This document shows, piece after piece, positions 37,355 through 50,860 of a stretch of 64,000 nucleotides of DNA. Numbering within the stretch: position 1 is the first letter of the stretch; every line of letters starts with the position of its first letter. A program made the position numbers and the translations under genes. The DNA comes from an uncultured Prevotella sp. (GTDB lineage Bacteria; Bacteroidota; Bacteroidia; Bacteroidales; Bacteroidaceae), in NCBI GenBank assembly GCA_964487905.1, contig CAZASQ010000001.1, positions 49,613 to 113,612 on the forward strand, in the 5' to 3' direction. Below the pieces are notes generated by a model, which saw only the letters and a program-made list of their open reading frames with translations, ran no database searches and was not told the DNA's origin.

Positions 37355-37903
37355 TTAAAAATAAAAGAAATGGCTATAATTAAAATCGGCTATCGGCGTG
37401 TAGGCATCATTCAAATCCTCCATTCGCTCAGGAATCTCATGAAGCGGGAGTCCTTCGTCCAACAGTCCTCGCAACTTACCGAACATCACATCATTTTCTT
37501 TATTTATAATACATTGCGATGTATTGATTCCGTATTCCTCCGCCTCCTCCGCTTCGGAAATAATCATACCGGAAAACAGACCATGCAACCCCTCTTTACG
37601 CGCAAACTCATCAGCATGACACCATATCCCAATGAGATTGCCACCATGCTTACGCAGATGATAGGCGTGAGGATGCCCCACTATAATCCCATCAAACTCC
37701 TTGCAACTATCGTCCTCACGGAAGAACAGACCATTCTCCGTGCCATGTCCAAGCAACATGATGCGTTCTTGCGAGGAGACATGATGCAATAACCGCCCTA
37801 TCTCTTTTGTGGCACGGTTGTCCCCTATCACCGTTGCACCCAATCCTGCATACAGAACAGATAGCATCGCTGTGGTCCTGTCCGTGGGATGTATCACTAG
37901 CAT
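37355..37903 (-). CDS. Orphan hypothetical protein (182 aa), last gene of the Nudix/macro-like cluster
   Basis: An intact ORF with no signal peptide and no TM helix. I recognise no family. It shows an alternating beta/alpha-like pattern with conserved-looking LLGHGTENGL and GIWCHADEF segments. Confidence 0.6.
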   Translation of the reverse strand: MLVIHPTDRTTAMLSVLYAGLGATVIGDNRATKEIGRLLHHVSSQERIMLLGHGTENGLFFREDDSCKEFDGIIVGHPHAYHLRKHGGNLIGIWCHADEFARKEGLHGLFSGMIISEAEEAEEYGINTSQCIINKENDVMFGKLRGLLDEGLPLHEIPERMEDLNDAYTPIADFNYSHFFYF

Positions 37904-37983: not shown

Positions 37984-38805
37984 TTATATATGGCTGATTA
38001 GCTCCAAGGTTCTCCCATCCGTCTCGCCATTATAGAAAGCATCCAATACTTTGCGAAAGATGTCGCGGGGAGACACTGCATCAAAAAGTGTCATGCACGA
38101 ACACACTTTTTGGGCATCAACTTCCCCCAAGATATCCCCCGCCGACAAGCCATCATGCGCCAGCAAGGTCTTGCTCACCTCTCGCAGCCTTGCCCCAAGT
38201 ACGGAATGACGGAGATAGGCTTCGGCTTCCTCACGCCCGCTGACACCATAGTATCGGCCATTGTCAGTTCTTCCAAGAGCAGCCAATTGAGGGAAAACGA
38301 ACCAGATCCAATGCGTTTGCTTCTTTCCCTCACCCAACTCCTGCAACACACGCGCATAATTAAACTTGTGGGCAAACAAGAAGCGCCCCAAATTATACTT
38401 GCTTTCCTCCAAAGAACGAAGAGTTTCCACAAACTCCTTGGGCAACAAGACGTTCTCCACCAGCAAAGCTTTCTCAAACAAAGGGGCTATCTCCTCGTCA
38501 CGAAATCCTGCTATTCCACAACCTATCCTTGTTACAAGGAAAGTCAAATCCTCATGTTCACGGGCAAACCGTATAAACTCATCCACGTAAGGCTTAATGG
38601 TCTCCACCCCTCCTTGCATTGTCGGGATGGCATAGCTTTGCCCTTGCAGCCCCACACCATTGCCCCACTTTGCGCCAAAGCGAAGAAAAGCCATGCACGC
38701 AGCCCCGCCACCATGCGCACCGGCAAGATTGCTTCCAAACACAAATATCTCGTTCTTCTCAAGATGAGTAATCTTCTCTGGAGTGTATTTTCTGCTGTAC
38801 GTCAT
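37984..38805 (-). CDS. Two-domain fusion: an N-terminal A1S_2505-type (macro-like) domain and a C-terminal DUF1810 domain
   Basis: The N-terminal segment is EIFVFGSNLAGAHGGGAA...GLQGQSYAIPT...FLVTRIGCGIAGF, a pattern I know from the A1S_2505 phage non-structural family. The C-terminal segment HWIWFVFPQLAALGRTDNGRYYG..EAEAYLRHSVLGARL...KVCSCMTLF matches the DUF1810 signature. Confidence 0.7.
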   Translation of the reverse strand: MTYSRKYTPEKITHLEKNEIFVFGSNLAGAHGGGAACMAFLRFGAKWGNGVGLQGQSYAIPTMQGGVETIKPYVDEFIRFAREHEDLTFLVTRIGCGIAGFRDEEIAPLFEKALLVENVLLPKEFVETLRSLEESKYNLGRFLFAHKFNYARVLQELGEGKKQTHWIWFVFPQLAALGRTDNGRYYGVSGREEAEAYLRHSVLGARLREVSKTLLAHDGLSAGDILGEVDAQKVCSCMTLFDAVSPRDIFRKVLDAFYNGETDGRTLELISHI

Positions 38806-38818
38806 CAGTTATGCCTAA

Positions 38819-39520
38819 TCAAAAATCCAACTTGATTCCCTTTTGCTTCAACTCTTCGTATTTCTGCTTATTAAACCGAAACAAACGCGCCTTTTTCTTA
38901 TTTGTGGGGTTCACCGCGTTCTCCGTCTGCTCCAGAATCTCCAGCCGCTTCATCTTATTATAGAAATTTCGGCGATCAAAACGCACATCAAGTATTGCCT
39001 CATACAGACTCTGAAGTTCCTTGATAGTAAACTGATTAGGAAGCAATTCAAAGCCAATAGGCTCAAAGTAAATTTGCTGACGCAACGCCTGTTCTGCCTT
39101 GCGCAAAATCTGGTCATGATCAAATGCCAGCTGAGGTACTTCGGTGAGCGCAAACCAACGCGCATCGGCTGCATCATCACCACTTTTCACATCCTGCATC
39201 CTCACCAAGGCATAATAGGCAATGGTTATAACCCGTTCGCGGGGGTCACGCTGAGGAGCAGTAAAGGTATGAAACTGGCGGACGGACGCCCCACGCACCC
39301 CCGTTTCTTCCTGCAACTCACGCAACGCACCCTCCTCCGCGCTCTCCTCCATTTCCAAGAAACCGCCGGGAAAAGCCCACCGCCCCTTATATGGATCCAT
39401 ACCTCGCTGTATGAGCAACACCATCAACCTTGCCCCATCAAATCCGAATATCACACAATCGGTTGTCACACTCGGATGGGGATATTTATAGCAATACCTT
39501 GCCGTCTCGCCTGTCTTCAT
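38819..39520 (-). CDS. NrtR-like protein: a Nudix hydrolase domain with a C-terminal winged-helix DNA-binding domain
   Basis: The Nudix box is GGFLEMEESAEEGALRELQEETGV. A C-terminal domain of about 80 aa (FTIKELQSLYEAILDVRFDRRNFYNKM...) is typical of NrtR-family regulators. Confidence 0.78.
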   Translation of the reverse strand: MKTGETARYCYKYPHPSVTTDCVIFGFDGARLMVLLIQRGMDPYKGRWAFPGGFLEMEESAEEGALRELQEETGVRGASVRQFHTFTAPQRDPRERVITIAYYALVRMQDVKSGDDAADARWFALTEVPQLAFDHDQILRKAEQALRQQIYFEPIGFELLPNQFTIKELQSLYEAILDVRFDRRNFYNKMKRLEILEQTENAVNPTNKKKARLFRFNKQKYEELKQKGIKLDF

Positions 39521-39557
39521 CTGTGTTTTTACTTGCAGTTATGTCAATATTACACTA

Positions 39558-39565
39558 CAAAGATA
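39558..39565 (-). promoter_or_regulatory. -7 promoter box (TATCTTTG on the minus strand) for the Nudix/macro-like cluster
   Basis: The reverse complement of caaagata, 38 nt upstream of the ATG at 39520. An imperfect palindrome, tgtcAATATTaca (39542-39554), lies between the box and the start codon. Confidence 0.5.
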
Positions 39566-39656
39566 ACGTGTTTCTCTCAAAAAGCCAAACGCTCCTGCAT
39601 AAGGCCTACACAAGCAAAGCCTTTTCCTCTATTTTGTCTCCCCAGAAGCCACATTT

Positions 39657-40508
39657 TCAAACGCGATGATACTCGACAAGACCCTCTATCGGACTTTTAA
39701 TGATTCGGGTAACAGCGAACTGATGGCGCGCAGCCACCTCGCGGAAGATAGGCCCAAGATGGGCGGCCACGCCACCCACGCAAGCCATATTGCGAAGTGT
39801 GGTGTCATAGCGGAGGATATTGTAGCGGAAGAAATCCTCAAAGTTGTCTGCCACAAGCTGTCGAATGCCCGCGTCATCGATGTGGCGGACTATAAACGGA
39901 GCTATGGAGGCCAAATACCTGTTGGCCATTGGCTCTTGATAAACGCGGCGGATAACATCCTCATAAGTTTGCTGCGTTTCTGCCAAGAATGCGTCCTTCA
40001 CGGCTGCAGACAGCCAACCTTTGAAAATGCCATTGAGGAAACGCCGCCCCAACGCGGCACCGCTCCCTTCATCGCCAAGGATATAGCCCAAGGGGGGGAC
40101 ATGCTGCGTGATGCGCGCCCCATCGTAAAGACAACTGTTAGCCCCCGTACCCAGTATGCAGGCGATGCCCGCATTGCGTCCCAATACGGCGCGGGCAGCC
40201 CCAAGCAAGTCACTGTCGGCACTCACTTCCGCCTTGGGGAACACCTCGGAAAGCAACGCGGCCATCTGTGGCGCAACAGACGGCGTACATCCCGCCCCAT
40301 AGAAGAACACGCCCGCCACTTCTTCCGCAGCCACCTGCGCCGCAGTTATCTGCGGGAGCTGTTCTTCTTGCAAAATAGAAGTGACTTGCGCCGCACGCTG
40401 ATGAAAAAGATTAATGCCCTGCGTATGGAATCGCAATGGTTCTGGAAGGACACCGCCCGTCAGTGCCCAATCGGTTTTCGTGCTTCCACTGTCTGCTATC
40501 AGTATCAT
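39657..40508 (-). CDS. BadF/BadG/BcrA/BcrD-type ATPase (N-acetylglucosamine kinase-like)
   Basis: N-terminal ILIADSGSTKTDWAL, GTGANS, and ILGDEGSGA motifs of the ASKHA sugar-kinase fold. Confidence 0.75.
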   Translation of the reverse strand: MILIADSGSTKTDWALTGGVLPEPLRFHTQGINLFHQRAAQVTSILQEEQLPQITAAQVAAEEVAGVFFYGAGCTPSVAPQMAALLSEVFPKAEVSADSDLLGAARAVLGRNAGIACILGTGANSCLYDGARITQHVPPLGYILGDEGSGAALGRRFLNGIFKGWLSAAVKDAFLAETQQTYEDVIRRVYQEPMANRYLASIAPFIVRHIDDAGIRQLVADNFEDFFRYNILRYDTTLRNMACVGGVAAHLGPIFREVAARHQFAVTRIIKSPIEGLVEYHRV

Positions 40509-49504: not shown

Positions 49505-50860
49505 ATGAAAAAGCTATTAGTATCACTTTCCGCCCTGGCTCTCACAGTCATCGGGCTTACCGGATGCGAAGATGTACCACAGCCTTACGATACACCTACG
49601 GCCGATGACAGCCAAGAAGTCGTGATTGAGCCAAAGGGAACTGGCACACAGAACGACCCCTTCAACGTTATTGGAGCACTCAACTTCATTGACGAGGGAG
49701 AGAACCTCGACCAAGCTGTCTACGTAAGCGGATACGTGGTGAAGATTGACAATATCGACACCAGCTTCGGAAACGCCACATACTACATCTCCGATGACTC
49801 CACTTCCACCACAACCACGCTTGAGGTGTACCGTGGACGCTATCTTGACGGCGAGAGCTTCACCTCCACCGACCAGTTGAAGGTTGGCGACAAAGTAGTT
49901 GTCTGCGGACAGGTCGTCAACTATGAGGGCACAAAGGAGTTTACCTCCGGCAACTACATCTACTCGCTCAACAACGAGACCGCCGGAGGCAGCGGCGATG
50001 ACGAAAGCGATGCACAGCCCGAGGGCAACGGCACACAGGCTTCTCCCTACAACGTGGCTGCCGCGCTGAACATTGTCACCGCACTCGCTGCTGGTGAGGA
50101 GACCAGCGAGCCGATATACGTCAAGGGAAAGATTGTGGAAATCCGCCAAGTGGAGACCGCTATCTATGGCAATGCCAACTACTACATCTCCGATGACGGC
50201 AAAAACCGCATCTACATCTTCCAAAGCTTCTACCTCGGTGGCGAGAAGTTTACATCGGAAGACCAAATCAAGGTTGGCGATGAGGTCGTTGTCTATGGCA
50301 AATTCACCAACTATATGGGCAACACGCCCGAGACAGTGGGCAAGGGACAGACCCATATTGTTTCCCTCAACGGCAAGCAAGACGCAAGTGATGAGCCAGC
50401 CGGGCTGAGCGCAGACTTCAGCAAGGGCGACAATGGCTTCACTATCAAGAACATCTCGCTGCCCGAGGGACTCAGCTTTATTTGGAATTACGACAGCGAG
50501 AACGGCTACTTCAAGGCCAACGCCTACGCTTCCCGTAAGAACTATGCCAGCCAAAGCCGCCTTGTTTCTCCGGCATTCAACTTGAAAGGTCTCTCCAAAG
50601 CTACGCTGACTTTCAACCACATGGCACGTTTCTTCAAGGATGCAGCCTCTGAACTGAAAGTACAGGTGTCTACCGATGGCACCAACTGGACCGACTTGAC
50701 CGTTTCCGCCTATCCTTCCGGAGAGAATTGGGACGTAACCACCTCCACTTGCGACCTCAGCAGCGTGGCTGGATCAAAGAAAGTCTACATCGGCTTCCTT
50801 TACACCAGCACCACCGAGGCTGCTGCCACTTGGGAAGTAACCAGCGTGGAAGTAAAGTAA
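49505..50860 (+). CDS. Surface lipoprotein: two tandem OB-fold-like modules and a C-terminal choice-of-anchor-J/MAM-like domain (a paralog of the preceding gene's C-terminus)
   Basis: Lipobox GLTGC. There is an internal duplication: NDPFNVIGALNF...VYVSGYVVKI...GNATYYISDD...KVGDKVVVCG versus ASPYNVAAALNI...IYVKGKIVEI...GNANYYISDD...KVGDEVVVYG. The C-terminus is IGFLYTSTTEAAATWEVTSVEVK. Confidence 0.6.
   Translation: MKKLLVSLSALALTVIGLTGCEDVPQPYDTPTADDSQEVVIEPKGTGTQNDPFNVIGALNFIDEGENLDQAVYVSGYVVKIDNIDTSFGNATYYISDDSTSTTTTLEVYRGRYLDGESFTSTDQLKVGDKVVVCGQVVNYEGTKEFTSGNYIYSLNNETAGGSGDDESDAQPEGNGTQASPYNVAAALNIVTALAAGEETSEPIYVKGKIVEIRQVETAIYGNANYYISDDGKNRIYIFQSFYLGGEKFTSEDQIKVGDEVVVYGKFTNYMGNTPETVGKGQTHIVSLNGKQDASDEPAGLSADFSKGDNGFTIKNISLPEGLSFIWNYDSENGYFKANAYASRKNYASQSRLVSPAFNLKGLSKATLTFNHMARFFKDAASELKVQVSTDGTNWTDLTVSAYPSGENWDVTTSTCDLSSVAGSKKVYIGFLYTSTTEAAATWEVTSVEVK

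Follow-up and report, generated by a model that had tools for sequence, protein, structure and literature searches.

Systems centred on ARG, regulated by Nudix-helix-turn-helix (HTH) or WYL proteins and coupled to phosphatases have been proposed as host countermeasures to foreign ADP-ribosylation (Iyer, Burroughs, Anantharaman & Aravind 2022, PMC9503650 section 3.8), and the first 120 residues of the protein A1S_2505 were already modelled on TARG1 with I-TASSER in 2020 (PMC6978653). Here we describe a gene from an uncultured Prevotella sp. in which an A1S_2505-type domain is joined to a DUF1810 domain. The gene is located on the minus strand at 37984..38805 of a stretch of 64,000 nucleotides (the window; positions 49,613 to 113,612 of contig CAZASQ010000001.1, GenBank assembly GCA_964487905.1), to which all coordinates given below refer. 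DUF1810 has had a 1.38-Å crystal structure (Mycobacterium tuberculosis Rv1873) since 2007, without a function, and searches of the open literature for DUF1810, PF08837 and Rv1873 found no functional study. With a probability of about 0.6 we consider the fusion to be an inducible module that removes or processes ADP-ribose (ADPr), i.e. a two-domain enzyme of ADPr metabolism. Such a function is suggested by the partners to which these domains are fused, by the neighbouring genes and by the Nudix-type regulator encoded upstream.

The fusion gene (P0001) is a single open reading frame of 273 codons with an ATG start, no internal stop and no frame break. Its translation holds every motif quoted in the preliminary description of this DNA, namely IFVFGSNLAGAHGGGAA, GQSYAIPT and VTRIGCGIAGF in the N-terminal half and HWIWFVFPQ, EAEAYLRH..LGARL and SCMTLF in the C-terminal half. 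Residues 1-133 (38407..38805, minus strand) make up the N-terminal, predicted divergent macrodomain; here the NCBIfam model NF049995 (A1S_2505_Nterm, curated cut-off 45 bits) matches residues 20-125 with 148.2 bits (E 8.8e-44, model positions 1-109 of 109), and phrog_2072 (PHROG 2072, unknown function) matches residues 2-131 (E 8.5e-38). Residues 137-270 (37996..38397, minus strand) make up the C-terminal DUF1810 domain with an all-alpha, Rv1873-like fold, matched by Pfam PF08837 (gathering threshold 25 bits) with 167.3 bits (E 2.2e-49, model positions 2-136 of 136). The sole solved relative found by sequence is Rv1873 (PDB 2JEK), which covers the C-terminal half only (E 1e-27). Both domain assignments of the preliminary description are thus confirmed far above the cut-offs, and the profile searches placed neither half in a different, well-characterised family.

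The search for homologues delivered 7924 significant matches, with full-length relatives in thousands of clusters, and at least 120 of the clusters listed at 90% identity share the same architecture, nearly all with a length of 265-283 aa and a query coverage of 97-100%. At least 24 independent contigs carry a 90%-identical orthologue, and the gene order is the same on them. Because of this recurrence, together with the intact reading frame, a sequencing frameshift or a joining of two reading frames is ruled out, and the covalent fusion is real.

A model of the fusion was calculated with AlphaFold2 (AF2) from 39 homologues; it has a mean predicted local distance difference test score (pLDDT) of 88.8, while the predicted template modelling score (pTM) of 0.57 makes the relative placement of the two domains unreliable. 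For residues 1-135, macrodomains make up about 30 of the 35 best VIA matches, with Z values of 7-10 over 117-135 aligned residues. The top macro matches are the alphavirus nsP3 macrodomain (4gua, Z 10.0), DarG (5m3i, Z 9.8) and the chikungunya virus macrodomain (Z 9.2); TARG1/C6orf130 (2lgr, Z 8.9), DarTG (7omu, Z 8.8), Af1521, MacroD1/2, the macrodomains of PARP9 and PARP14, and Poa1p are also among the matches. Foldseek independently matched the N-terminal half to TARG1 (probability 0.98) and SCO6735 (0.94). The predicted model therefore supports a macro-like, three-layer alpha/beta/alpha fold, in agreement with the term used in the preliminary description. The domain contains two glycine-rich loops, FVFGSN26-LAGA-H31GGGAA and IG95CG97IAGF. 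In 139 homologues, 74 of which originate from viral contigs, the residues F21-V-F-G-S-N26-L, G29, H31, G34, A36, G95, G97, N118 and P122 are conserved to 99-100% and C96 to 98%. The pattern N-x4-H-G-G-G...G-x-G resembles that of phosphate-binding loops 1 and 2 of hydrolytic macrodomains with their ribose-contacting Asn, a putative equivalence drawn from the pattern.

The C-terminal half of the model superimposes on Rv1873 (2JEK) with a VIA Z of 26.1 and a root-mean-square deviation of 0.9 Å over 139 residues (Foldseek template modelling score 0.95). Invariant polar residues of this half are R141, E156, H165, Q173, E193, Y197, H200, R206, D230 and K233. In view of these residues and of the independent existence of DUF1810 in many bacteria, the domain would more probably bind a small ADPr-derived ligand in a pocket or catalyse a step than act as a partner-specific adaptor. 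A protein-atlas search with the DUF1810 half, from which DUF1810 clusters were excluded, gave no usable match.

A second line of evidence comes from the other architectures in which the two domains occur. One whole series combines them with ADP-ribosylglycohydrolase (ARH) and protein tyrosine phosphatase (PTP) domains: PTP + macro-like + DUF1810 (about 450 aa, P0063), ARH + macro-like + DUF1810 (656-670 aa, P0128 and P0122), ARH + PTP + macro-like + DUF1810 (720 aa, P0127) and ARH + PTP + ARH + macro-like + DUF1810 (1109 aa, P0125). To these is added ARH + PTP + DUF1810 (586-589 aa, P0140), which has no macro-like domain and thereby shows that the tie of DUF1810 to ADPr-removing enzymes is independent of that domain. 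Throughout this series DUF1810 is the C-terminal module. The data place the two halves in a common pathway; they may also act on the same substrate, as the preliminary description had argued from the fusion, or share a ligand pocket. Two further proteins (P0137 and P0138, 666-669 aa) combine Polysacc_synt, a flippase-like membrane protein, with DUF1810 and may be either an artefact of gene calling or a genuine DUF1810 that is anchored in the membrane.

Within the same genus the N-terminal domain forms a 124-aa protein by itself, but it is also joined to DUF1810, in L002 and L003 either directly or with further regions. In L006 it follows the C-terminal portion of an ARH, and in L005, L008, L009 and L010 it follows a sigma-70 region-4/HTH-like region of 130-270 aa, the Pfam matches of which are weak and under the curated thresholds. 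The earlier statement that both domains normally stand alone is fair for DUF1810; A1S_2505-type domains do not only stand alone, given their fusions to sigma-70/HTH-like regions and ARH. The combination of a sigma-70/HTH-like region with the macro-like domain suggests an ADPr-sensing or ADPr-reversing transcription factor.

The gene neighbourhoods point in the same direction. Among 100 same-strand neighbours of fusion genes from 16 loci, ADP_ribosyl_GH (ARH) and NADAR account for 12 each, NUDIX for seven, NrtR_WHD for six, CTP_transf_like (NMNAT-like) for four, DarT, dual-specificity phosphatase (DSP-PTPase) and DUF6939 for three each, and Tpt1/KptA for one. Single loci additionally carry SIR2, a bacterial PARG and RtcB, genes for a CCA-adding enzyme and for more phosphatases, and a gene of the T4 gp30.3 family. 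The gp30.3 family represents the NADAR class that reverses DarT1 DNA ADP-ribosylation (PMC11825919). The preliminary description was right that the fusion is informative on two orphan families at once, and its suggestion that NAD and ADPr-type ligands are relevant is backed by this context. The functional tie goes further than proposed there, with the best evidence coming from the NrtR-type regulator next to the fusion, the broader range of ARH/PTP/DUF1810 fusions and these ADPr-gene neighbourhoods.

Two islands may serve as examples. The NrtR-led island L198:2916-10783 comprises ARH+PTP, ARH+macro-like+DUF1810, a T4 gp30.3/AdfN-family (NADAR-type) gene and an M54-like peptidase, as well as a homologue of a 182-aa caspase-fold protein that is also encoded in the window (see below), a PTP-NADK and a low-molecular-weight phosphatase. 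In the block L027:3089-7224, which recurs in L028 and L030, DUF6939 is followed by a DarT-domain protein of 484 aa, an uncharacterised protein of about 260 aa and a macro-like::DUF1810 protein that is extended by about 140 aa at its C-terminus. The latter, a longer paralogue of 413-418 aa with 52% identity, is thus encoded two genes downstream of the DarT-domain protein, and the block could represent a system of the DarTG type whose antitoxin is non-canonical.

Directly upstream of the fusion and co-directional with it lies a gene for a 233-aa Nudix-winged helix-turn-helix (wHTH) regulator of the NrtR/AraR family (38819..39520, minus strand; Pfam NUDIX, NrtR_WHD and AraR_C). Its stop is 13 nt before the fusion start codon, and no terminator-like site was found between the two genes. 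The Pfam scores are 82.6 bits for PF00293 (Nudix) and 71.5 bits for PF21906 (NrtR winged helix); since the score against the equivalog NF050029 is 139 bits at a cut-off of 400, the protein is regarded as a member of the NrtR family and not as a proven orthologue. The closest solved structures are AraR (5BS6) and EF2700, with the ADPr-responsive NrtR of Shewanella (3GZ5) being more distant. The Nudix box GFLEMEESAEEGALRELQEETGV (G-x5-E-x7-REUxEExGU) is fully intact in the translation, so that a nucleotide-diphosphate would be a candidate ligand of the regulator.

The 136-bp gap upstream of the regulator gene contains a Bacteroidetes-type -7 box (TATCTTTG, 39558-39565) and two operator-like palindromes. 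Palindrome A, TAGTGT-N7-ACATAA on the minus strand (39539..39557), is located directly 3' of the -7 box, and palindrome B, TTGTGT-N7-ATGCAG on the minus strand (39595..39613), is 56 bp from A. Both differ by two mismatches from the consensus TKGYGT-N7-ACRCMA, which occurs in its exact form (typically TTGCGTAAAATTTACGCAA) in 13 of the 194 loci fetched, often in pairs 52-56 bp apart. In at least nine loci exact sites shortly precede genes for Nudix-box regulators, next to which macro-like or macro-like::DUF1810 genes follow immediately; the 19-bp palindrome TTGYGTAAAWWTTACRCAA precedes the NrtR-like gene that leads a macro-like operon in L011, L016, L022, L024, L025, L031, L045, L064 and L076. 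The consensus has a GT-N7-AC core, which is the core reported for NrtR-family operators (PMC2330246).

The mechanism that we propose for the ADPr module combines these features. The compact, divergent N-terminal macrodomain would bind an ADP-ribosyl moiety via its two glycine-rich phosphate loops and would most likely hydrolyse an ADP-ribosyl conjugate, the carrier of which may be a protein, a nucleic acid or a small molecule. DUF1810 would be an accessory module of the same pathway, which either recognises the modified substrate or processes the ADPr-derived product further after its release. The fusion would be co-transcribed with the upstream NrtR-type Nudix-wHTH repressor, which is expected to bind the paired palindromic operators at the promoter and so to regulate its own operon. 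The operon would probably be off until an ADPr-type ligand appears, and after induction it could serve for de-ADP-ribosylation or detoxification, with no cognate transferase belonging to the module. The analysis itself shows the identity of the domains, their predicted folds, the network of fusions and neighbours, and the operator-like sites, from which ligand, catalysis, substrate, control by ADPr and biological role are inferred.

In a set of 401 evenly sampled Bacteroidota genomes the fused form is present only in the genome of the window, whereas stand-alone DUF1810 occurs in about 22 (open frames of about 140-217 aa, with one partial match in a 93-aa frame) and the N-terminal domain alone in a few. 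Among 41 close relatives, three matches are fusions, 13 consist of the N-terminal domain only and three of DUF1810 only, so that the distribution is patchy even inside the genus. Full-length matches in species-representative genomes all belong to Bacteroidales from gut and rumen (Phocaeicola plebeius, Bacteroidaceae, Muribaculaceae and Prevotella metagenome-assembled genomes). On viral contigs the N-terminal domain alone is very common, including contigs larger than 200 kb (jumbo phages), and DUF1810 alone is occasional; the best 80 viral-contig matches comprise single domains only and no fusion. The fusion is accordingly restricted to a clade, yet it is abundant and a standard architecture in gut and rumen Bacteroidales metagenomes. 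The word 'unusual' in the preliminary description is therefore appropriate in the sense of a lineage-specific architecture, but not in the sense of a rare one. As to stand-alone DUF1810, its only recurrent neighbours in 14 other Bacteroidota genomes are an AlkB-type oxygenase, EEP, RNase_T+GIY-YIG and an amino-acid permease, all in a single synteny block of one genus. In this genus (g26; L181, L182, L185, L186) the grouping with the AlkB-type 2OG-Fe(II) oxygenase, the EEP nuclease/phosphatase and RNase_T+GIY-YIG hints at nucleic-acid repair, within a single lineage.

Several observations weigh against a role in ADPr metabolism. The N-terminal domain has no match to a Pfam Macro family at E<=0.01, and a profile of 20 family members compared with PDB sequences gave only marginal matches to the macro-like BT1257/2AFC (E about 0.6-0.7); the macro fold hence depends on the predicted model, where Z values of 8-10 exceed the background to a moderate degree only. 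Among solved structures the regulator is closest to the arabinose-responsive AraR (5BS6) and not to an ADPr-responsive NrtR, and NrtR homologues of Bacteroidetes control pentose genes (PMC2330246). Within the window the operator pattern with two mismatches is not enriched (22 found versus 30 expected), so that palindromes A and B are backed by their position and spacing only. No NAD or ADPr genes were found next to stand-alone DUF1810 in the 14 other Bacteroidota genomes. The genome of the window has no NADAR match and a single, distant ARH on another contig, and apart from NrtR the local context in the window is thin.

A narrower version of the proposed role would make the fusion a DarG-like antitoxin or orphan immunity enzyme for ADP-ribosylated nucleic acid, with the macro-like domain stripping ADPr placed on DNA or RNA bases or ends by the transferase of a phage or competitor, and with DUF1810 as the counterpart of the second domain of DarG, binding toxin or nucleic acid. 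The DarG macrodomain and DarTG are among the best structural matches, the 413-418-aa paralogues of L027, L028 and L030 stand downstream of DarT-domain proteins, and NADAR, Tpt1, RtcB, the CCA-adding enzyme and the T4 gp30.3/AdfN-family gene occur as neighbours. The macro-like domain is also very common in phages, jumbo phages included, as with the orphan antitoxin-like NADARs (PMC11825919), and in one genus stand-alone DUF1810 adjoins AlkB, EEP and exonuclease-GIY-YIG genes. However, the immediate neighbours of the fusion in the window (NrtR-like, 182-aa caspase-fold and BadF-like) include no DarT, the DarT tie belongs to a class of paralogues that is separated from DarT by a further gene, the ARH and DSP-PTPase partners would fit ADPr on proteins just as well, and the synteny with repair genes is confined to one genus; we regard this version as unlikely, though a serious candidate. 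A housekeeping enzyme for soluble NAD-derived metabolites, such as an O-acetyl-ADPr deacetylase or an ADPr-1''-phosphate phosphatase without a role in conflict, would feed ADPr to the Nudix domain in an NrtR-controlled regulon for NAD salvage or ribose recycling. NAD salvage is the classical function of NrtR regulons (PMC2330246), the same operons contain NMNAT-like (CTP_transf_like)+NADAR genes and SIR2, Poa1p and the TARG1/O-acetyl-ADPr-deacylase class are among the structural matches (PMC6978653), and stand-alone DUF1810 is widespread outside the islands. The islands themselves vary and have a mosaic make-up that includes phage-type genes, DarT, PARG and caspase-like proteins, as is typical of conflict systems, and together with the patchy occurrence of the fusion even inside the genus this makes a housekeeping role rather improbable.

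The macro-like domain could also be a non-catalytic reader of ADPr or a related nucleotide that allosterically controls an effector or enzyme activity of DUF1810, or the reverse. Many macrodomains are binders only, and the invariant polar residues of DUF1810 suggest that this domain has a separate pocket. Rv1873 is listed as a possible ATP-site protein in a structure-based survey (PMC5624866). On the other hand, the stand-alone 124-aa macro-like proteins of phages would need an activity of their own. The motif Asn-x4-His-Gly-Gly-Gly, which we presume to be that of hydrolytically active MacroD-type and viral macrodomains, likewise argues against a mere reader, and we give this explanation a low probability. 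Least credible is a function unrelated to ADPr, in which the regulator senses a pentose like AraR and the macro-like fold binds another sugar-nucleotide or a phosphosugar. The relationship of the regulator to AraR and the lack of a Pfam Macro match would fit such a function; but pentose-utilisation genes are absent from the operon and from all related loci, the neighbours and fusion partners are overwhelmingly ADPr enzymes and the Nudix box is fully intact, and we therefore consider it highly improbable.

Downstream of the fusion and co-directional with it lies the gene for a 182-aa protein (37355..37903, minus strand) that has no Pfam, NCBIfam or PHROG match. Its AF2 model (pLDDT 86, pTM 0.84) has full-length structural matches at Z 7-9.9, among them SAVED-CHAT (9.9), separase (9.4) and legumain (8.4-8.7), and further matches to metacaspase, MALT1, clostripain, gingipain and caspases. 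In the family His53-Gly and Cys95 are invariant and in canonical order, and a small caspase-like clan-CD fold is predicted. Homologues are encoded near macro-like genes in L198 (63% identity), L019 (55%), and L038 and the viral L105 (37-38%). Since this gene recurs in the same islands, the regulator, the fusion and the 182-aa protein all belong to one recurrent gene network. The 186-aa genes without Pfam match in L012 and L014 were also considered as homologues and were rejected, as they show no similarity. Upstream of the regulator, a 283-aa gene (39657-40508, minus strand) has no Pfam match at E<=0.01; it is called BadF-like after a 90% orthologue with a weak match to BcrAD_BadFG (ATPase/sugar-kinase-like). 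This gene is syntenic in close relatives and was not found in the wider islands.

A more far-reaching proposal is tentative, and we would not yet rely on it: DUF1810 may be an unrecognised ADPr component, either a new enzyme acting on ADPr or an ADPr-derived product or a reader of ADP-ribosylated macromolecules, the NrtR regulator, the fusion and the mini-caspase may form a new inducible de-ADP-ribosylation defence or immunity module of gut Bacteroidales, and the stand-alone macro-like proteins of phages may be its counter-defence mirror. Both families had been catalogued, the macro-like nature of A1S_2505 had been suggested and the concept of ADPr systems linked to NrtR is established. Apparently new in the searched literature is the systematic tie of DUF1810 to ADPr enzymes via several independent fusions, and the Bacteroidales NrtR/macro-like operon with its conserved operator and associated mini-caspase. 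The A1S_2505/phrog_2072 family is among the commoner phage genes of unknown function. The repeated fusions of the two domains to each other, to ARH and to DSP-phosphatases, the Nudix-type regulator and the islands with DarT, NADAR, Sir2 and Tpt1 turn two orphan families into a concrete, testable hypothesis, which for DUF1810 is the first testable function and may provide a lead for the mycobacterial protein Rv1873. At the same time, the proposed class of ADPr-sensing de-ADP-ribosylation systems that lack a transferase would be extended to the abundant Bacteroidales of the human and animal gut, where it would matter for conflicts between phages and hosts and between bacteria.

With the ARG-centred systems (PMC9503650) the locus shares an ADPr-deconjugating enzyme (predicted here) without a cognate transferase and a one-component Nudix-HTH repressor, and its relatives share the frequent coupling to phosphatases of the rhodanese/PTP superfamily, Macro and NADAR as variable extras, and the mosaic islands. 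The core is, however, a divergent macro-like domain instead of ARH. The Pfam scan of the window operon found no ARH, and a phosphatase is likewise absent; the operon is therefore not a member of the set as defined. DUF1810 and the 182-aa caspase-fold protein are absent from the main text of that paper, and the lineages differ as well, with Bacteroidales here versus actinobacteria, planctomycetes and proteobacteria there.

DarG, the antitoxin of DarTG2, consists of a macrodomain that acts as DNA ADP-ribosylglycohydrolase and a C-terminal DarT-binding domain. The fusion resembles it in the predicted N-terminal macro fold (Z 9.8) followed by a second domain, and fusion paralogues are found near DarT genes; unlike DarG, the fusion has no adjacent DarT in the window, it has DUF1810 in second place, a domain that is widely found as a protein by itself, and similarity to DarG is undetectable with hidden Markov models. 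TARG1/C6orf130 and SCO6735, which are ALC1-like macrodomain hydrolases, are similar in size and, to judge from the Foldseek probabilities, in predicted fold, but identity is as low as 12-16% and the N-terminal domain is shorter (about 125 aa). We take its N-x4-H-GGG loop to be closer to the MacroD and viral type than to the Lys/Asp type of TARG1. Rv1873, the structural prototype of DUF1810, shares 40-41% identity with the C-terminal half in addition to the close superposition, and the motifs HWxWFxFPQ, EAxAYLxHxxLGxRL and MTLF are common to both. In contrast to the fusion, Rv1873 stands alone, as a 145-aa protein to which no function is assigned, and we know of no ADPr context for it. Finally, the phage orphan antitoxin-like AdfN NADAR proteins (PMC11825919) differ from the fusion in their NADAR fold, as opposed to a macro fold, and the activity of the A1S_2505 family is a prediction; in both cases ADPr-removing domains occur without a transferase in phages and bacteria, the macro-like domain is abundant on phage contigs, and an AdfN-type gene of the gp30.3 family neighbours the fusion relative in L198.

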